Shown here: positions 2,917 to 50,284 of the stretch, in pieces
How the letters are laid out: each line of letters begins with the position of its first letter
Numbering within the stretch: position 1 is the stretch's first letter
DNA from: Candidatus Nomurabacteria bacterium
Lineage (GTDB): Bacteria > Patescibacteriota > Minisyncoccia > Phycocordibacterales > SBAW01
Direction: 5' to 3'
Assembly: GCA_943349945.1 (NCBI GenBank)
Contig: CALQZS010000001.1
Location: 51,339 to 115,338, forward strand
DNA length: 64,000 nt
Program-made: the position numbers and the translations under genes
The notes under the pieces: generated by a model
What the model was told of the DNA's origin: nothing
What the model saw: only the letters and a program-made list of their open reading frames with translations
The model's database searches: none

Positions 2917-4113
2917 ATGCCCCAGGTAAACCCAGAAATTGAAGCTTTCGCACGAATCCGCGTCGTCGGTGTTGGCGGCTCGGGCAAAAACGCCGTCAAC
3001 CACATGATGGAAAGCAAAGTGCGTGGCGTCGACTTTGTCGTGGTTAACACCGACGCACAAGACCTCCACCACAGCCTCGCAAAGAAAAAAATCCACATCG
3101 GCAAAAACCTGACCCGCGGTTTGGGTGCGGGCGCAAACCCAGACTTGGGCCGCCGCGCCGCCGAAGAAACTAAGGAAGAAATTCAGCAAGCCATGAAGGG
3201 CTCAGACATGGTGTTTATCGCTTGCGGTATGGGCGGCGGCACCGGCACAGGTGCCGCACCTGTGGTAGCCAAAACTGCAAAAGAGCTGGGCGCCCTGACC
3301 GTCGCAGTGGTAACCAAACCATTTTCATTCGAAGGGCAGCAGCGCCTACGCATGGCCGAGCAAGGTTTGGAGGATTTGCGCAAAGAGGTGGACGCGCTCA
3401 TCGTCATCCCCAACGACCGCATCTTGGCCACAGTAGCCAAAGACACCACGCTCAAGGCAGCGTTTGCCTTGTGTGACGATATTTTAAAACAAGCAGTCGA
3501 GGGAATTTCTGACCTTATCACCCACCCCGGCATCATCAACGTCGACTTTGCCGACATCCGCGCCGTTATGGAAAACGCCGGCTCGGCACTTATGGGTATT
3601 GGTGTTGCGTCGGGCGAAAACCGCGCAGCGGTTGCTGCCAAAGCAGCCGTATCCTCGCCACTGCTTGAGCTGTCTATAAACGGTGCAAAAGGTGTGCTGT
3701 TTGCGATCGCCGGTGGCGACGACCTGGGGATGGTAGAAGTGCACGAGGCAGCAAAAATCATCACCGAGTCAGTGGATGCAAATGCCAAAATCATCTTTGG
3801 TGCAATCAAAGACGAAAAACTCAAGAAAAACGACGTACGCGTAACGGTCATTGCAACTGGCTTCCCCGCTGTAGGCGTAACGCCTCGTGGCACACCATTG
3901 TTTAACTTTGCCCGCGACACAAAAGAAAAAGAGCCTGACGTCGCCCCTATCGGCAAAATATTTAACACACCAGCAGCACCCACAAAAGAAAAAGAGGAGG
4001 AGCCTAAAAAAGCCCCTGTCCAAGAGATTGAAGTGAAGCCAAAAAAAGACGAGGACGAAGACGATGAGTGGGGCGCGGTACCATCCTTCCTTCGCCGACC
4101 AAAAATTAAATAA
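2917..4113 (+). CDS. ftsZ: cell division GTPase FtsZ
   Basis: Contains IRVVGVGGSGKNAV and the GGGTGTGAAPVVA tubulin signature. The Met at 2917 gives an N-terminus of typical length (ORF 2872..4113). Confidence 0.95.
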   Translation: MPQVNPEIEAFARIRVVGVGGSGKNAVNHMMESKVRGVDFVVVNTDAQDLHHSLAKKKIHIGKNLTRGLGAGANPDLGRRAAEETKEEIQQAMKGSDMVFIACGMGGGTGTGAAPVVAKTAKELGALTVAVVTKPFSFEGQQRLRMAEQGLEDLRKEVDALIVIPNDRILATVAKDTTLKAAFALCDDILKQAVEGISDLITHPGIINVDFADIRAVMENAGSALMGIGVASGENRAAVAAKAAVSSPLLELSINGAKGVLFAIAGGDDLGMVEVHEAAKIITESVDANAKIIFGAIKDEKLKKNDVRVTVIATGFPAVGVTPRGTPLFNFARDTKEKEPDVAPIGKIFNTPAAPTKEKEEEPKKAPVQEIEVKPKKDEDEDDEWGAVPSFLRRPKIK

Positions 4114-4119
4114 AAATCC

Positions 4120-4192
4120 GCGAGTAAATAAGAAAAAGAGTGCGCTCCGGGCCGCTAGGCCAAGTCTAACCCTCTTTTTCTTATTTACTCGC
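4120..4192. repeat. perfect 21-bp inverted repeat (gcgagtaaataagaaaaagag / ctctttttcttatttactcgc) around a 31-nt GC-rich loop, downstream of ftsZ
   Basis: Arms at 4120-4140 and 4172-4192 are exact reverse complements. The stem is AT-rich and there is no U-tract after it. Confidence 0.8.
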
Positions 4193-6857: not shown

Positions 6858-6903
6858 ATGCCTCTAGTATACACCCGCCACACAAACCAAACCCGCCTCC
6901 CTC

Positions 6904-6942
6904 TACGAAGGTCAGTCCTTCGTCGAAGGACTGACCTTCGTA
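6904..6942. repeat. perfect palindrome (core 35 nt: cgaaggtcagtccttcg|tcgaaggactgaccttcg), copy 1
   Basis: Exact self-complement. An identical 35-mer occurs at 30898-30932. GGGATAAC-type DnaA-box-like motifs follow at 6951-6985. Confidence 0.9.
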
Positions 6943-6994
6943 AGCCAAGATGGGGATAACTTTTTTGTGGGATAATTAAAGGCTTTTGTTTATT

Positions 6995-7015
6995 TGTGAC
7001 CTCACCGGGAATCAG
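6995..7015. repeat. direct repeat of the tRNA-Glu 3' end, 175 nt downstream of that tRNA
   Basis: tgtgacctcaccgggaatc here versus tgtgaccccaccgggaatc at 7170-7188 (1 mismatch). Confidence 0.7.
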
Positions 7016-7171
7016 CTGCACGAAATTGTTTAATTTTCATGGTCACAAGTCAAATTTTGTCGTCACAAAATTCGCTCGCGACCCCGGCTCGCGATTTTGC
7101 AAGTGCAAAACATCGCTACGCCCGTCCCAAAAGCAGAAAACCTGCCGCAGGGCAGGTATTTCTGTCTTTTG

Positions 7172-7243
7172 TGACCCCACCGGGAATCGAACCCGGATTA
7201 ACGGCTTGAAAAGCCGGCGTCCTAACCGTTAGACGATGGGGCC
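7172..7243 (-). tRNA. tRNA-Glu (anticodon TTC)
   Basis: Cloverleaf GGCCCCA...CTTTTCAAG...GGTTCGATTCC...TGGGGTCA. CCA is not encoded. Confidence 0.85.
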
Positions 7244-7450: not shown

Positions 7451-7583
7451 AGCGAAGAGGAACAAAGTGCGGGGCACTTTGTGTGAGGTATTTGAAAGCC
7501 GGAACGGGCCCCGGACCAGCAGGTACGGGGGTGAGGCAGGGTCGTGCGGCCAAAGTTGCGACGGGAACTTTGGGACGCCTGAC

Positions 7584-8237: not shown

Positions 8238-9661
8238 CTTCCCTCATACTCGAAGCCGAGTCAACAAGAGTTTTTTTCTTGATACACGGGTATACAGGCA
8301 GCTCGGACGACTTTCATAACTTGCCAGGTATTTTGCATAAAAAATTTAACGCAAACGTTAAAGTTATTTTGTTGCCTGGGCACGGCACCAAAGTTGAAGA
8401 CCTCGACCACATCACCTACGCAGATTTTATGTACGTGCTGCGCAACGAACTAGAAAAAGAACTGTCGAAGGGTATGGAGGTTATCTTAGGCGGGGTAAGT
8501 ATGGGTGGGCTGTTTGCGCTCTTACTTGCAGCCGAATACCCCGTACAAGGAGTTTTTAACGTTTCCTCTCCCTATGTTATGAAGTTTCCCTTTAACCTAC
8601 CTGGCTTAAAATACATTCTGAAGTACAAAAAATACTGGAAAAAGGCAACACAATCGTCGACACATTCAAAAACATCTGGGTCGTTTAGTTACACGCATAT
8701 GCACTCTAATGGATTTTATATAGCCGTGCAGGCAAAAAAAGAACTGCGGCGCGTTCTAAAAAATGTATCCAGCCCTCTACTCACCATATTTTCCACCAAA
8801 GATGACATTGGGCACATACGGTCGGTACGCAGCATACAAGAGGGCGCAAACTCCAGCATCAAAAGAGAGGGCATCTTCCACATAGAGCCGCATAATGTAT
8901 TTTATTCTAATGAAGACCACAAGGTAAATGATGAGATAGTACGATTTATTGAATATATAGATTTGCCAGAAAAGCACTTAGGCAGCCGCGAAAAAATTGC
9001 AGCCATTATCCCCGCCTATAACGAAGGGTCAAGAATAGAAGCAGTTTTGCGCGCAGTGACCGCTGTTTCTTTGATAGACGAGGTGATTGTTGTAGATGAC
9101 GGCTCTACAGACAATACACGCGAAGTAGTAACAAAATTTCCCAACGTCACCTACATACAAAACGAAGTAAATATTGGCAAAGCAGGCTCGCTAGACAAAG
9201 GAGTGACCCACACAGACGCATCTATATTGTTTTTCTGTGATGCCGATCTTAGAGGCATCACGCCTACAATGATTGAGCAGATACTCGAACCCGTCCTATT
9301 TCGCACATACGCGATGTTTATCGGCTTGCGCAATAATCCCATGCAAAAATCTGTGCACTTGTTTGCAATAAATTCTGGCGAACGCGCCCTAACACGAGAA
9401 GTATGGGAGAAACTACCCCACTATTTTAAACACCGATACCGAGTCGAAGCTGGCTTAAATTATATGGTACGAAAATATTTTGGAGGATTTGGCTACCGAA
9501 CCTTCGATTACTCGCAGCCCTTAAAAGAGAGCAAGTACGGACTAGTGAGAGGCACTTACTTGCGCTGGAGCATGAATATGGACGTCTTGCTAGCCTATAC
9601 TCGAGAAATTATCGAGCGGCTTTTTCGACCGCAAAGACTCTATACTTGCCATGACAAATAA
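8219..9661 (+). CDS. fusion protein: N-terminal alpha/beta-hydrolase (esterase) domain and C-terminal family-2 glycosyltransferase domain
   Basis: GVSMGG nucleophile elbow in the N-terminal half. The C-terminal half has IIPAYNEGSRIE...VVDDGSTDNT...CDADL. Low GC. Confidence 0.75.
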   Translation: MAPKEITSLILEAESTRVFFLIHGYTGSSDDFHNLPGILHKKFNANVKVILLPGHGTKVEDLDHITYADFMYVLRNELEKELSKGMEVILGGVSMGGLFALLLAAEYPVQGVFNVSSPYVMKFPFNLPGLKYILKYKKYWKKATQSSTHSKTSGSFSYTHMHSNGFYIAVQAKKELRRVLKNVSSPLLTIFSTKDDIGHIRSVRSIQEGANSSIKREGIFHIEPHNVFYSNEDHKVNDEIVRFIEYIDLPEKHLGSREKIAAIIPAYNEGSRIEAVLRAVTAVSLIDEVIVVDDGSTDNTREVVTKFPNVTYIQNEVNIGKAGSLDKGVTHTDASILFFCDADLRGITPTMIEQILEPVLFRTYAMFIGLRNNPMQKSVHLFAINSGERALTREVWEKLPHYFKHRYRVEAGLNYMVRKYFGGFGYRTFDYSQPLKESKYGLVRGTYLRWSMNMDVLLAYTREIIERLFRPQRLYTCHDK

Positions 9662-10605: not shown

Positions 10606-11850
10606 ATGCGTGTACTAGCAATAGAAACGTCGTGCGATGAGACAGGTATCGCGATAGTAGAAGGTATAAAAACTAGCGCACCAGGAGGTTTTACCTTTAC
10701 CCTTTTGGGTGCTGCGGCGCTCAACTCGCAAGCAGCACTGCACGCACACTACGGCGGCGTCTTTCCCAGCCTTGCCAAGCGCGAGCACGAAAAAAACTTG
10801 CCGGTTATTTTAGCGCAGGCACTAATGCATGCACAGCCGAAATTCGCACGAGAAAATAGTCTGGCCCGAAGCTCGTCCGAAGACGAGCAAGGGAGAACCG
10901 AGGACTTTTTCGAGGCGAATTTTGGCGAAGCAATAAACGCTTTACACATAGACGCCATAGCCGTGACCCAAGGCCCTGGGCTTGAACCCGCACTGTGGAC
11001 AGGTATCACCTTTGCACAAAACCTCGCAAAAGAAACAGGACTGCCGTTGTTGCTAGCCAACCATATGGAAGGGCATCTTATCTCATCTCTTGCACAACCC
11101 GAACATTCTAGCATTCTGCAGAATGCTAGAATGTTTACACTAGAAAATGTGCAGCTACCAGTGCTTGCACTGCTCATCTCGGGCGGACACAGCGAATTTG
11201 TGTTGATGAAAAACTGGTTCGAATACTCCGTAGTGGGAGAGACACAAGACGACGCCGTAGGCGAAGCCTTCGACAAAGTTGCACGCATGCTCGGACTCCC
11301 CTACCCAGGCGGCCCCGAGATATCCAAAATTGCTGATGTCGCTAGAAAAGCGAAGATGCAGAGTTTGGAGGGGCTCCACAGCGCGTCTGCATCTTCGCTT
11401 GTTCTCCCACGCCCTATGCTCCACAGCAAAAATTTAGACCTTTCTTTTTCTGGACTCAAGACCGCTGTACTGTACGCGCTGCGCGACTTGGGCGGCATAC
11501 AAAAACTATCGCACGAGCAGATAGCAGAATTTGCCCGAGAGTTTGAAGATGCCGTAGCCGACGTGCTGGTAGCCAAAACTCGGCGCGCATTGGAAGAAAC
11601 TGGCGCCCAAACATTTGTAATCGGCGGCGGTGTTGCAGCAAACACCTACCTACGCGAGAGGCTTAGCGCGTGCGTGCAAAACGAGTTCCCCCACGTGGCC
11701 CTGCGACTCCCCGACCTCTCTATAACAGGCGACAACGGCATCATGGTGGCACAGGCTGCGCTTGCCCGCGCACTTTCTGGCTTGGACGACACCCCAAAGG
11801 GCGAGGTACGCGCCTACAGCAATAGGTTCTCGATTTTAGCGCCAAAATAG
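10606..11850 (+). CDS. tsaD: tRNA N6-adenosine threonylcarbamoyltransferase TsaD
   Basis: Contains LAIETSCDETGIAIV and VIGGGVAANTYLRERL. Start is taken at MRVLAIE within ORF 10465..11850. Confidence 0.9.
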   Translation: MRVLAIETSCDETGIAIVEGIKTSAPGGFTFTLLGAAALNSQAALHAHYGGVFPSLAKREHEKNLPVILAQALMHAQPKFARENSLARSSSEDEQGRTEDFFEANFGEAINALHIDAIAVTQGPGLEPALWTGITFAQNLAKETGLPLLLANHMEGHLISSLAQPEHSSILQNARMFTLENVQLPVLALLISGGHSEFVLMKNWFEYSVVGETQDDAVGEAFDKVARMLGLPYPGGPEISKIADVARKAKMQSLEGLHSASASSLVLPRPMLHSKNLDLSFSGLKTAVLYALRDLGGIQKLSHEQIAEFAREFEDAVADVLVAKTRRALEETGAQTFVIGGGVAANTYLRERLSACVQNEFPHVALRLPDLSITGDNGIMVAQAALARALSGLDDTPKGEVRAYSNRFSILAPK

Positions 11851-17228: not shown

Positions 17229-19013
17229 CTAGTCTGACTGTATCATCTTCAAAAAAACTTCCTCGGGGATGTTTACTCGGCCGCGCTCTTTCATGCGCTC
17301 CTTACCCTTCTTTTGCTTTTCGCGCAGCTTCATCTTGCGGGTAATATCGCCGCCATACATGTGTTGTGTTACATCTTTGCTCAAGGCAGAAAGCGTCCGC
17401 GACGACACAATGCGCCCAGACGCAAGCGCCTGTATTTTTGTAGCAAACTGCTGGCGTGGCAGTATTTTATATAACTTCTCTACCGCCCCCACAGACTCCT
17501 CGTCGGTGCGGTGCCGCGCAATAATACGCGAAAACGCTGGCACAGGCTCTTCTGCGACCGCTATGTCCATACGCACCACGTCCGCCACGCGCAATTCGCG
17601 AAACTCGTACGACACGGATGCATAGCCAGACGAAACGCTCTTAAGTTTGTCGAAAAAGTTACGCATCAACTCACGCAACGGCAACACCACCCGCACAATA
17701 ACCCGCCCTTCTGAAAAGGTTTCGGTCGACTCGGTAGCTGCCTCGTGCTCAAACAACAGTGGCATAAGCATGCCCAAATATTCCCCGGGCAAAATAATCT
17801 CTGCTTCTACAAACGGCTCCCATATCTGGGCGATGTCGCCGTGGTCTGGAAACTGCGTGGGAGAGTATACCGTGTGCCGCTTGCCGTCTTTTGTCTCTAC
17901 CTCGTAGGTTATAGTAGGCGAGGTGATAACCAACGACAGCCCTGCTTCGCGCCGCAGGCGTTCCGTCACAATCTCCAAGTGAAGCATCCCGAGCAGCCCG
18001 CAACGAAAGCCCCGCCCAAGCATACCCGACGACTCTTCTTCAAAAGAAAGTGACGAGTCCGACAAGCGCAACCGAGACAATGCCTGGCGCAAAGCAACAA
18101 AATCACCCTGGTTTTCTGGATACAGCGACGCCCACACCACCGGACGAGGCTCGGCATACCCCGCAAGCGGCTCCGACCGTGTCCCATGCGCCCGCACCGT
18201 GTCGCCGACTCTCGCCAAGCCCGGCTCTTTGATGCCTGTTACCACATACCCAATAGTCCCCACGCTCAAGCCCTCGGACAAAGCCACAGGGAGCGGCGTA
18301 AAGGTGCCCACCTCGAGTGCATTAAACTTGCGTCCGGTTGCGGCAAACTCCAGAGTGTCGCCTTTTTTTATCTGACCATCAAACATTCGCAGATACACAA
18401 TAACGCCTTGGTGGTCGGAATATTGAAAGTCGAACACGAGCGCACGCGGAGGCAAACTTTGCAAAGCAACTAAAGATTTTGGCGGCGGCACCTGTTCTAT
18501 CACCGCCTTAAGCAACTCTTCTACCCCTTCGCCTGTTTTGCCCGAGCAAGTCAAAATAGACTCCGGCTCTATGCTCAAAAGCTGCGCCACCTGCACCCGC
18601 ACATCGTCGGTGCGTGCAAGCGGCGAATCAATTTTAGAAATGGCTGGCACAATAACTAGCCCAAGCTCGCGGGCAGTGCGCAGCGTGGTTAGTGTTTGCG
18701 CCTGTACGCCCTGGGTCGCATCCACCAACAAAATAGCACCCTCCACCGCAGTAAGCGCGCGCGACACTTCATAAGAAAAGTCTATGTGCCCTGGAGTGTC
18801 TATGAGGTGCAGCGTATAACCCCCGTAGCGCATCCGCACCGGCTGCATTTTTATGGTGATGCCGCGTTCGCGTTCCAGCTCCATAGAGTCCAGCACTTGG
18901 TCGCGCATGCGCCGTGGCTCTATGGTGCCTGTACACTCCAAAAAGCGGTCAGCCAAGGTCGACTTACCGTGGTCTATGTGGGCAATAATGCTGAAATTCC
19001 GTACCTGTTGCAT
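17229..19013 (-). CDS. lepA: elongation factor 4 (LepA)
   Basis: [18 protein letters not shown] with GTPase G-motifs and the LepA C-terminal domain. Confidence 0.95.
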
Positions 19014-23096: not shown

Positions 23097-23490
23097 CCCC
23101 GCTTTTGGCGGGGCGTCTACAATATCTAGCGCGCGCGTCTGTAAGCCGAGTTCTGTCTCCGCCGGTTGGCGGAAGCAACAATTTATCTAGCTCGGGCGTT
23201 ACCGCCCGAGTCAAGCGGCACTCCCACACAAGGTGGGCACGGCCTTGCACTTGGACAAGGATTTAGCTCCGACACCCCGAAGGGGTCGGAGTCCCGGTTT
23301 ATTACGTCGGGACCGTTTCACTCCCACTGAAGGGACTCGTCTCTGTTCGCACCTCTGGTGCCCGCTAGCAGCACCCGATGGGGATTACCCACTGCCTGTC
23401 TGCACTCCACATTTCTGTAGAGGCAAGTGCTCGGACTTTCCTCTCTGACTATTCGTCAGAGCTGTTACTCGACGCGCTCTCTATATTGTA
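23097..23490 (-). ncRNA. rnpB: RNase P RNA (bacterial type)
   Basis: On the minus strand: P4 region GAGGAAAGTCCGAGCAC, GGGAGTGAAACGG, ACAGAACTCGGCTTACAG, and P1 pairing between the 23471-23490 and 23120-23140 regions. A hairpin follows at 23095-23116. Ends are approximate. Confidence 0.75.
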
Positions 23491-29197: not shown

Positions 29198-30847
<1,650 letters not shown>

Positions 30848-30897
30848 CTAGTGAGTGAGTGAATAAAAGGCTAAAAAGTTATCCCCAGTTCTCTCAA

Positions 30898-30932
30898 CGA
30901 AGGTCAGTCCTTCGTCGAAGGACTGACCTTCG
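30898..30932. repeat. perfect 35-nt palindrome, copy 2 (identical to 6906-6940), in the groES-groEL spacer
   Basis: Exact match to copy 1. Flanked by gttatcccca (30879-30888) and tgtggataac (30944-30953), which are DnaA-box-like. Confidence 0.9.
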
Positions 30933-30937
30933 GGTGG

Positions 30938-31321
30938 TTAGTTGTGGATAACTGCGAGAATGCTGCTTTCGGGCAAGATGTAGTACTCTACCCCGCCCAC
31001 CTTTATTTCGTCGAAGCCATACTTAGAGAACATCACTTTGTCGCCAACCTGGACCCCCATAGGCACTAGTTCGTTGTCGTCGCCGCGGCGACCGGGACCC
31101 ACCGCCACTACGGTGCCGTGTTCCGGTTTTTCTTTTGCACTGTCGGGGATAATAAGCCCAAACGAAGTCATCTCTTCGGGAGCTTGGGGCTTGATGAGTA
31201 CGCGGTCGCCCATAGGCAACACGCCCAACTCACCAAATCGACTTGTAGTAGAGGTAACTTTTTTAATGACCTGCTTTTTTGCACCACTGCGCGCGACAAC
31301 TTTTTTCTTAGTTTTTTTCAT
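30938..31321 (-). CDS. groES: co-chaperonin GroES with ~35-aa basic N-terminal extension
   Basis: GroES core (RVLIKP...GTVVAVGPG...GDKVMFSKYG) preceded by MKKTKKKVVARSGAKKQVIKK. Confidence 0.9.
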   Translation of the reverse strand: MKKTKKKVVARSGAKKQVIKKVTSTTSRFGELGVLPMGDRVLIKPQAPEEMTSFGLIIPDSAKEKPEHGTVVAVGPGRRGDDNELVPMGVQVGDKVMFSKYGFDEIKVGGVEYYILPESSILAVIHN

Positions 31322-49177: not shown

Positions 49178-50284
49178 ATGCAGGCCCTGTTTGCAACACT
49201 GTTGTGTATATCGTTTTTACTGCCCAGCACGGCGCTGGCGCAAAACGAGGTGGTACTTGATGTGCACGCTATATATAAAGCGCGCGTCACCGCGGTAGCC
49301 GACCAACAAACCATCACCCTACCCGGCACACAAACCACAGCACAGGTGCAGACACTCACCGCACAGCTGCTCGAGGGTCCGCACAAAGGCACCGAAGTGG
49401 TGTTTGAGAACGACTACACACAGCTTGCGCTGGGCGACAAGTTTTATCTGCGCCACATCACCAACGACCTAGACCAAACATCCTTCTATAGCGTCGCCGA
49501 CCCAGACCGCCTGCCCGTGTTGGCAATACTGTTGGCGCTGTTTATATTTTTGATTTTTATCTTTGGCGGCATCCAAGGTGTGCGCGGGCTTGCAAGCCTG
49601 TGCGGCAGCATACTGCTTATTTTCTATCTGTTGCTGCCGGGCATCTATGACGGCTACTCACCCATACTCGTGAGCATAGGTGTTGCGTCGCTGATTATTG
49701 TGGTGGGCTCATACATCACCCACGGGTTTAACAAAACTACCTCTGCTGCGGTGTTGGGGATGCTCGGCACCGTATGCATCACCGGCGTGGCCGCATACGT
49801 GGCGATGGACGCGGCCAACTTGAGCGGTTTTACTTCGGACGAAAGCGTATACCTTAACTTCGACACAGGCGGCAACATAAGCATGGTGGGCCTGCTCTTT
49901 GGCGGCATCATGATAGGTCTGTTGGGCGTGTTGTATGACATGGCCATAGGTCAAGCTGTGGCCGTAGAAGAATTATTTGCCGCAGGTAGCCTCACCCCGG
50001 CAGAGGTGTACCGCCGGGCGATACGCATCGGGCGCGAGCATATTGGCGCGTTGGTAAACACACTAGCCATTGCCTACGTGGGTGCGGCGCTGCCCTTGCT
50101 GCTGTTGCTCCAAAGCTCCGACAACAGCATGCTGTTTATACTCAACAAAGAAGTCTTTGCCACCGAGATAGTGCGCATCTTAATAGGCAGCATCGGGCTC
50201 ATCTTGGCGGTCCCTATAACCACAGCTATAGCCGCGTTTGTGTTGGTGGGCAAACCGCGCGGCGCACACGCACACAAACACTAG
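49178..50284 (+). CDS. YibE/F-family membrane protein
   Basis: Signal peptide, an extracellular domain, then a polytopic YibE/F-like region. Confidence 0.65.
   Translation: MQALFATLLCISFLLPSTALAQNEVVLDVHAIYKARVTAVADQQTITLPGTQTTAQVQTLTAQLLEGPHKGTEVVFENDYTQLALGDKFYLRHITNDLDQTSFYSVADPDRLPVLAILLALFIFLIFIFGGIQGVRGLASLCGSILLIFYLLLPGIYDGYSPILVSIGVASLIIVVGSYITHGFNKTTSAAVLGMLGTVCITGVAAYVAMDAANLSGFTSDESVYLNFDTGGNISMVGLLFGGIMIGLLGVLYDMAIGQAVAVEELFAAGSLTPAEVYRRAIRIGREHIGALVNTLAIAYVGAALPLLLLLQSSDNSMLFILNKEVFATEIVRILIGSIGLILAVPITTAIAAFVLVGKPRGAHAHKH

Follow-up and report, generated by a model that had tools for sequence, protein, structure and literature searches.

The stretch of DNA analysed here, referred to as the window, comprises 64,000 nucleotides (nt) of a contig from a Candidatus Nomurabacteria bacterium, an organism of the Patescibacteria/candidate phyla radiation (CPR) whose GroEL has its nearest named relatives in Candidatus Adlerbacteria. 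The subject of this study is a 35-nt palindrome that the window carries at two intergenic places. Copy 1 lies between a DUF305 gene (PF03713; 6465..6857, minus strand), which is situated 3' of it, and a tRNA-Glu gene (7171-7243, minus strand) on the other flank, 48 nt upstream of the DUF305 ATG and ~230 nt downstream of tRNA-Glu. These flanks had been given correctly in a preliminary description of the same DNA, although the gene-free stretch between them measures 313 nt (6858-7170) and not 314 nt. Copy 2 lies in the operon of groES (30938-31321) and groEL (29198-30844), which occupies 29198..31321 on the minus strand with a promoter-like site upstream of groES at 31409-31382. There it sits within the 93-nt spacer between the two genes, 5 nt past the groES stop codon and 53 nt ahead of the groEL ATG. 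This location of copy 2, the self-palindromic nature of the palindrome's arms and the extension of the repeat beyond 35 nt are points that the preliminary description did not contain.

The 35-mer, CGAAGGTCAGTCCTTCG-T-CGAAGGACTGACCTTCG (in full, CGAAGGTCAGTCCTTCGTCGAAGGACTGACCTTCG), occurs exactly twice on the plus strand, at 6906-6940 and 30898-30932, and gave no matches in 100 dinucleotide-preserving shuffles, which bears out the earlier observation that an identical palindrome recurs at 30898-30932. It consists of a 17-nt arm, a single unpaired base (T on the plus strand) and a second 17-nt arm, and because its length is odd it matches itself on the reverse strand with one mismatch. At copy 1 the pairing continues through TA/TA to 6904-6942, the limits originally reported for the palindrome; the stretch identical in both copies, however, is confined to 6906-6940. 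In a hairpin census perfect stems of 19 pairs (copy 1) and 17 pairs (copy 2) were found, as against no hairpin with a stem of at least 12 pairs in the shuffled window (n=20). Every 17-nt arm is itself a mini-palindrome, CGAAGG-N5-CCTTCG, so that the 35-mer can be folded either as two small hairpins or as a single helix of 16-19 bp; the predicted DNA fold of this doublet has an energy of -20.1 kcal/mol (z = -9.0). The doublet core of copy 1 (6906..6940) is assigned to the minus strand, which has the flanking box of the family 5' of the core and is also the sense strand of DUF305, and there the arms CGAAGG-TCAGT-CCTTCG and CGAAGG-ACTGA-CCTTCG surround the central base. The doublet core of copy 2 (30898..30932) in the groES-groEL spacer is likewise placed on the minus strand.

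Contigs of the same species that span a site whole, two at groESL and ten at DUF305 from ENA, JGI and NCBI assemblies, are identical in sequence, and an assembly artefact is thereby excluded for the element. Related loci and contigs retrieved for comparison are denoted below by L numbers. Two Logan contigs, L006 and L008, begin 82 nt upstream of groEL, within the second arm of the palindrome, and the element evidently breaks k-mer assemblies.

The repeat exceeds the 35-mer, and the two window sites align over 64 nt at 84% identity. The consensus of the full element is A5-GTTATCCMCAG, N5, CTTA-CRAAGG-TCAGT-CCTTYG-TAAG, N5, CTGKGGATAAC-T5, that is, an outer box with an A run, five variable nt, a stem with a TCAGT loop, again five variable nt, and an inverted box with a T run, forming an imperfect palindrome of about 73 nt; the lengths of the repeat as a whole lie at roughly 75-95 nt. 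Its terminal inverted repeats are A(4-6)GTTATCCMCAG and CTGKGGATAAC-T(4-6), and in the window as well as the related loci each occurrence of the box AAGTTATCCCCAG, allowing at most one mismatch, has an arm 9 nt further on. At copy 1, a 10-nt spacer (6941..6950, minus strand), which varies between copies whereas box and arm do not, separates the core from an outer box at 6951..6966 (minus strand; TGGGGATAAC with T6 on the plus strand, A6-GTTATCCCCA on the minus strand) that is kept in L046 and L049. This box is the first of two motifs downstream of the palindrome which had been noted as resembling DnaA boxes, and both are indeed present (TGGGGATAA at 6951-6959 and GTGGGATAATT at 6967-6977). The second (6967..6977, minus strand; GTGGGATAATT on the plus and AATTATCCCAC on the minus strand) stands in tandem with the first and is kept at the DUF305 site of relatives.

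Copy 2 is an imperfect palindrome of 38+38 nt. Its outer box at 30873..30888 (minus strand) reads A5-GTTATCCCCAG on the plus strand and, once transcribed with groESL, CTGGGGATAAC-U5, which would form the 3' half of an outer stem, and the spacer between core and box (30889..30897, minus strand) would form the 3' side of an internal loop. The 5' side of that predicted loop (30933..30942, minus strand) holds the groES stop codon (30938-30940), and the 5' half of the stem is a box at the 3' end of groES (30943..30953; AGTTATCCACA on the minus strand, with a perfect TTATCCACA) made up of the last groES codons (A-V-I-H-N). In the predicted fold the spacer box pairs with AGUUAUCCACA into an outer stem of 10-11 bp that surrounds a 10x10 internal loop and the inner hairpin and is followed by U5. 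The predicted energy of this structure is -39.8 kcal/mol (z = -6.0) for the doublet and -23.7 kcal/mol for a relative with one arm, with the outer stem unchanged.

Alignment of 14 distinct cores from the window and its relatives lends support to the stem. Two of its pairs are altered on both sides, one between G:C and A:U with two G·U intermediates and the other between A:U and U:A; 86.5% of the cells are paired, as compared with 26-56% when the register is slid, and the covariation score lies above all 500 shuffles. As the rows of this alignment are related copies, these changes support the hairpin without proving it.

Among relatives the groES-groEL spacer is found in several states. In the window species it has 93 nt and a doublet. 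In L035, L037 and L040 it has 75 nt and exactly one arm, being 18 nt shorter, with TGTGGATAACTTTTT; the difference between this singlet and the doublet is exactly one arm plus one base. In L034, L036, L041 and L042, and also in L050 and L051, it has 88-89 nt with an unrelated hairpin and no box, and in the more distant relatives L038 and L039 as well as L052 and L053 it is empty, with 9 and 4 nt respectively. L034, L035, L040 and L041 represent a single sister species in which groEL is 97-98% identical at the nucleotide level, and the GroEL proteins P0006 and P0005 were found with both the one-arm and the other-hairpin allele. Between the window species and this sister species groEL is about 83% identical in nucleotides; in the spacer the arm agrees at 17/17 positions, the box shows one change, and 5/10 positions differ in the intervening 10 nt (30888-30897, a stretch which overlaps the first base of the copy 2 outer box). 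Arm and box being conserved and the stretch between them variable, the predicted paired parts are kept and the predicted internal loop is not. The hairpin of the alternative allele, ACTATATGAG-CAGCTTCG-CTCATATAGT (L034 9912-10000; also L036, L041, L042, L050 and L051), shares one species with the element allele and occurs in a third species as well, and no repeat of this 'type H' hairpin was found elsewhere among the fetched loci.

The DUF305 site is comparably variable. The window species has a doublet, as has L049 (DUF305 90% identical), there with a single G·T change. L046-L048 have a singlet and a remnant of a second arm (TCAAAGGA...), and from the remnant in L046 the doublet at this site would appear to be old. 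L043 and L044 have a CAAAGG..CCTTTG singlet with a box, with a ZIP-YibE_F cassette standing between singlet and DUF305; L054 has a singlet with no box, adjoining a ZIP gene; and L055 and L056 (DUF305 62% identical) have no element and a canonical terminator in its place. In all DUF305 relatives (L009, L043-L049), including those that lack the element, TGTATACT stands 6-8 nt ahead of the ATG; in the window it is at 6866..6873 (minus strand), 8 nt before the DUF305 ATG. Its conserved position just before the start codon suggests that it is the -10 region of a leaderless or near-leaderless DUF305 mRNA, and the promoter would then lie downstream of the palindrome, which would occupy about -46 to -80.

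Two further observations concern the surroundings of copy 1. GTGACCTCACCGGGAATC at 6996-7013, beside the palindrome, copies the 3' end of tRNA-Glu (7171-7188), some ~170 nt away, with 17/18 identical positions. The duplicate looks like an att-type remnant of integration or excision, and L046 and L049 show only a GGTCA..A-rich trace at its position. Relatives have a ZIP-(Fur)-YibE_F metal-homeostasis cassette separating the element from DUF305 (L043 7992-9927, L054 2399-4761), and the YibE_F gene of the window is found at 49178-50284, ~42 kb away, the DUF305 neighbourhood having been rearranged.

The element is also present at sites unrelated to the two in the window. In L043 and L044 a complete symmetric element forms a clean insertion of ~84 nt in the spacer between an S1-domain gene and a Lactamase_B_3 gene, and the same point is empty in the window species (L009, L012, L013) and in L046 and L047. 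At this site and at the ZIP/DUF305 site the arm of the relatives reads CAAAGG-TCAGT-CCTTTG. Just upstream of the S1-domain gene, L046 (17272-17288) and L047 carry a hairpin, TACAAAGG-TCAGT-CCTTTGTA, which is the family core; at the same place, within homologous flanks, most genomes have TACATAGG-CCGGG-CCTATGTA (L009 12439-12455, L043 18672-18688). Either an earlier hairpin was converted or both hairpins have a common origin. The contig of one relative holds three copies in about 42 kb.

With three or four non-homologous intergenic sites, occupied and empty states of the same site, and compensatory stem changes, the role of a REP-like (repetitive extragenic palindromic) intergenic repeat that had been listed among the candidates is supported. 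The finding of further copies and of conservation in relatives also speaks against a recent duplication confined to the two window copies. We regard it as rather probable that each 35-mer is the central hairpin, in doubled form, of one copy of a small non-coding palindromic repeat, comparable to REPs and their hairpin-forming doublets (REPINs) or to miniature inverted-repeat transposable elements (MITEs) and confined to a narrow Adlerbacteria-like CPR clade.

REPINs are hairpin-forming doublets of REPs, accompanied by decaying singlets, by A/T runs beside the doublets and by derived long palindromes (PMC3337134). The likeness to the REP/REPIN systems of Pseudomonas and Enterobacteria with their RAYTs (REP-associated tyrosine transposases) covers several features (PMC3337134): the unit is a short extragenic imperfect palindrome, here the 17-nt CRAAGG-TCAGT-CCTTYG; an inverted pair of units gives a longer hairpin, here in the window copies and L049 with ~16-19 bp; singlets that appear derived or decaying occur beside doublets, with A and T runs flanking the element; long perfect palindromes arise as by-products; and copies lie within operons and between convergent or divergent genes. 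The differences are equally clear. The doublet arms are 1 nt apart, whereas REPIN units are separated by tens of nt; there is an additional outer pair of inverted boxes; the copy number appears to be at most a few per 50 kb, in contrast to hundreds of REPs per genome; and no RAYT (HUH/Y1) gene was found in the available sequence. A GTAG/GTAA stands at the 3' foot of the hairpin, whereas in REPs it is the 5' end that carries the conserved GTAG. Membership in the REPIN family is not established, given the apparently low copy number and the failure to find either a RAYT or a target-site duplication.

Elements of the MITE-like kind (Correia/NEMIS, ERIC, RUP and the Rickettsia palindromic elements) share with the present repeat a size of ~70-100 nt, terminal inverted repeats, a foldable interior and presence/absence polymorphism at orthologous sites, seen here in the S1/Lactamase_B_3 spacer and in the groESL alleles of one species. 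They also share the transcribed intergenic location and, in some of them, the overlap of one end with a coding 3' end, here that of groES. Typical MITEs have drifting interiors, whereas here conservation of the central hairpin matches that of the ends; nor can a target-site duplication be recognised where the clean insertion stands. To our knowledge there is no parent insertion sequence with the same ends.

Several results weigh against the reading as a dispersed repeat. No direct repeat surrounds the ~84-nt insertion (L043 compared with L009 and L046), although this is a single occupied/empty case whose boundaries are not sharp. A profile search found no copy beyond the two in the 64-kb window and none further in the other loci, and with three or four independent sites in the clade a 'dispersed mobile family' rests on few events. 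A tblastn search with an IS200 TnpA query gave only chance matches in ~423 kb of window and clade loci, which are redundant and cover only part of each genome, and neither an IS200/RAYT-like nor any other transposase appears in the locus gene tables or in the 10 window open reading frames (ORFs) scanned with Pfam; recombinase and DnaA families are likewise missing from the Pfam matches of these 10 large unannotated ORFs. At groESL the 5' outer box belongs to the groES coding sequence proper and is found in element-free alleles too, so that the 'element' at this site may consist of the arm and the 3' box alone. Across species, groEL is less conserved than the arm (loop included) and indeed than the entire groESL spacer, which fits a selected cis-element equally well as, or better than, selfish DNA. 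Finally, the G·T variants conflict as to the functional strand, those of L049 and L047 pointing to the sense and that of L054 to the antisense strand.

From the directly observed architecture, copy distribution, insertion polymorphism, 18-nt singlet/doublet difference and compensatory changes, together with the predicted folds, we infer how the repeat may fold in vivo, spread, change between singlet and doublet and act on mRNA. As a dispersed palindromic repeat, it would have been gained and lost at intergenic sites as species diverged. In the window species and the L049 lineage the 17-nt core would have come to stand as an inverted doublet, turning a 6-bp hairpin into a perfect helix of ~16 bp. 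Singlet and doublet could be interconverted in one 18-nt step, either by duplication of an arm in inverted form, for example through template switching, or by loss of one arm through a deletion between the doublet's direct CCTTCG repeats. Between groES and groEL the transcript would be expected to fold into an outer stem, an internal loop and a highly stable inner hairpin with U5 behind it; most likely this would be a barrier protecting or attenuating the 3' end, and the ratio of groES to groEL transcripts would shift as a result.

The main functional effect is most likely to be felt at this RNA level, as a predicted, much stronger intercistronic stem-loop in the groESL transcript by which the groES 3' end would be stabilised or read-through attenuated. 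This proposal is made by analogy with selective RNA processing and stabilisation: in operons, stronger 3' stem-loops increase the relative abundance of the upstream transcript, and stem-loop strength sets the transcript ratios of operons encoding protein complexes (PMC4423207). The groESL site resembles such intercistronic stem-loops in having a stable stem-loop directly after the upstream cistron of an operon for a heteromeric complex, with a stem strength that depends on the lineage (a predicted ~16 kcal/mol between singlet and doublet). It differs from them in that the same sequence also occurs outside operons and in that outgroups have no such spacer.

A possible, if rather unlikely, alternative is that the structure is foremost a selected cis-acting RNA signal for processing, stabilising or attenuating the groESL transcript between its cistrons, with modules recruited at a few genes and the doublet as an adaptive strengthening. 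The conservation of the paired parts beside an internal loop that varies between species would be expected of such a signal, as would the U5 after the composite stem and the known control of operon transcript ratios by stem-loop strength (PMC4423207). An alternative allele with a different hairpin in the same position gives the impression that a stem-loop is wanted there, and the TCAGT strand is the sense strand at both informative sites, groESL and DUF305. Yet close outgroups manage with spacers of a mere 4-9 nt, copy 1 lies upstream of the putative DUF305 promoter, and one complete copy separates divergent genes and precedes a promoter-like site, a place that calls for no transcript end. The inner hairpin also lacks a direct U run, unlike the canonical terminators of the window, and the L054 variant would place an A·C mismatch on the transcribed strand.

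We consider it unlikely that the element is an active REPIN-like replicator of an ultra-small CPR genome, with a hairpin-specific enzyme (HUH/Y1-like or other) recognising the invariant CRAAGG-TCAGT-CCTTYG hairpin, the doublet as its mobile form and the groESL copy co-opted for chaperonin tuning. If this were so, doublets detected in L002, L021, L030 and L032 would reflect a wider, undescribed CPR repeat system. These came from a scan of public data with the pattern GAAGG-N5-CCTTCG-N-CGAAGG-N5-CCTTC; because its stems are fixed and only the loops are free, the matches cannot prove a wider family and serve only as leads. High-GC matches were rejected as direct coding repeats, and those in L020, L024 and L027 as lying within RecG and TsaD coding sequences; the other discarded matches were likewise coding or due to chance. 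The intergenic candidates that remain (L002/L031/L033, L021, L030 and L032) have loops which are different yet complementary. Gene context was examined for L002 and L030. In L002, L031 and L033, a Candidatus Moranbacteria metagenome-assembled genome and matching contigs, the analogous palindrome lies between two co-directional genes; in L030 a CAAGG/CCTTG analogue lies between the convergent rplU and recR, with a canonical terminator and also a TACATAGG-N5-CCTATGTA hairpin next to it. These doublets may point to a wider class of CPR hairpins, with the reservation that the search pattern was biased towards the stems. The family core had no match in viral contigs, and the broader class C-NN-AGG-N3-7-CCT-NN-G is scarce in the window, where four of its six matches are the palindrome arms.

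Some details of these scan matches may be recorded. A 33-nt doublet with CTAAA/TTTAG loops is alike in L002 (6883-6915), L021 (2425-2457) and L032 (1003-1035), in three different flanking contexts and in contigs with 38-51% GC; the CAAGG/CCTTG analogue of L030 stands at 8655-8687. In the low-GC L027, scaffold doublets (7484-7516 and 3346-3385) occur in coding RecG (...EGPPFAEGWSFGE...) and TsaD (...TKGNPSESKGYP...), the latter with a mismatch in each arm and a perfect long two-arm hairpin.

The binding site of a dimeric regulator, another of the roles proposed at the outset, is improbable. In this form the 17-mer CGAAGG-N5-CCTTCG would be the site of a dimeric or tetrameric regulator controlling groEL together with DUF305, for instance under stress or in response to metals. 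Identical palindromes do stand 53 and 48 nt before the two start codons on the same strand, the stem and loop sequence is invariant in three species, and ZIP, YibE_F and a Fur-family gene are found near DUF305 in relatives. At the same genes in close relatives, however, the element is missing or another sequence takes its place: an unrelated spacer occurs in strains whose GroEL protein is the same, and no element adjoins the DUF305 promoter in L043-L045 or L055. Other copies adjoin the unrelated S1 and Lactamase_B_3 genes, and the half-site changes are compensatory, as befits a hairpin and not a protein half-site. A sequence of the type of CIRCE (controlling inverted repeat of chaperone expression; TTAGCACTC-N9-GAGTGCTAA) was not found in the window with up to 3 mismatches.

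A role as DnaA-binding sites, whether origin-related, DnaA-titrating or as a DnaA-regulated promoter element, is highly improbable. The association rests on 9-mers resembling DnaA boxes, namely a perfect TTATCCACA at 30943-30951 (minus strand), in L035 and in L043, and otherwise TTATCCCCA (8/9), with two inverted boxes per full element. The GGGGATAAC/GTTATCCMC motifs are, however, the outer inverted arms of the repeat, which at groESL are predicted to pair with one another and which always accompany the hairpin, and one such 'box' amounts to no more than the closing codons of groES. In the commonest form the mismatch to the consensus falls at position 7, within the conserved CACA. GC skew is negative across the whole 64-kb window without a change of sign; TTATCCACA with at most one mismatch is not enriched (15 observed, 10.7 expected); each site has one to three box-like 9-mers and no cluster of the oriC type; and neither dnaA nor dnaN is among the annotated window ORFs or in the gene tables of overlapping loci. 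An oriC or DnaA cluster was rejected on the GC skew and the box counts.

It is scarcely credible that the copies, with their boxes inward, bound an invertible or deletable 24-kb segment from groEL to tRNA-Glu, or that copy 1 ends an element integrated at tRNA-Glu: although the modules of palindrome, 10 nt and TGGGGATAACTTTTT are mutually inverted and an 18-nt duplicate of the tRNA-Glu 3' end stands at 6996-7013 beside copy 1, the relative contig CBBESA010000001.1 has its genes from groES to DUF305 in the same order and orientation, all same-species contigs spanning either site have identical junctions, inversion would part groES from groEL, and no integrase or recombinase was found nearby.

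Other identities were considered and set aside. A CIRCE/HrcA operator was rejected, as the palindrome differs in sequence and sits between groES and groEL. Canonical terminators elsewhere in the window have GC stems with flanking A/T runs; at both copies the inner hairpin has no adjacent U run and is not reported by the terminator scan, and at groESL the U5 comes only after the outer stem, so that the inner hairpin does not look like a canonical terminator. An integron attC site does not fit, since the boxes read GTT...AAC 5'->3' on both strands, the opposite of RYYYAAC...GTTRRRY, and no integrase is present. Mimicry of an anticodon loop or T-arm was rejected from the size and sequence of the loop. 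Rfam 15 at the gathering threshold matched only tRNAs and RNase P RNA in the window, and in E-value mode both sites gave only chance matches to miRNAs and sRNAs far below threshold. The RNase P RNA (bacterial class A; 23126-23480, minus strand) scored 106.3 bits against a gathering threshold of 100.

A few observations in the window and its relatives lie apart from the element. Within the tsaD coding sequence (10606-11850, plus strand) there is a 34-nt perfect palindrome, AACATTCTAGCATTCTG|CAGAATGCTAGAATGTT (11102-11135), in a variable loop after the HMEGH motif; at this position L046 has CTAGTGTTTTG|CAAAACACTAG (22 nt, perfect) and L043 has none. It may be a conserved hairpin in coding sequence or an in-frame palindromic insertion. 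The spacer of ftsZ and trxB holds, at 4120-4192 and 25 nt before trxB begins, two perfect inverted arms of 21 nt, GCGAGTAAATAAGAAAAAGAG ... CTCTTTTTCTTATTTACTCGC, around a GC-rich loop of 31 nt. As to translation starts, that of groEL, CACTCACTAGATT-ATG, shows no recognisable Shine-Dalgarno sequence, and in L043 a -10-like TGCTAAAAT precedes the Lactamase_B_3 start (~18895-18915), such -10-like boxes ending 6-8 nt before the starts. Initiation that is leaderless or independent of a Shine-Dalgarno sequence may be common in the window organism.

Short palindromic repeats are barely described in Patescibacteria/CPR, whose tiny genomes are usually held to be repeat-poor, and a literature search found no repeat of comparable kind for this group. 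In practical terms, the element breaks assemblies and its outer arms can be mistaken for DnaA boxes. The groES-groEL and DUF305 sites offer a compact example of element evolution, in which singlet, doublet, replaced and empty states are met at one site within and between sister species. If the copy between groES and groEL does alter the transcript ratio, these natural alleles would provide a ready comparison for the control of operon stoichiometry in uncultivated bacteria.

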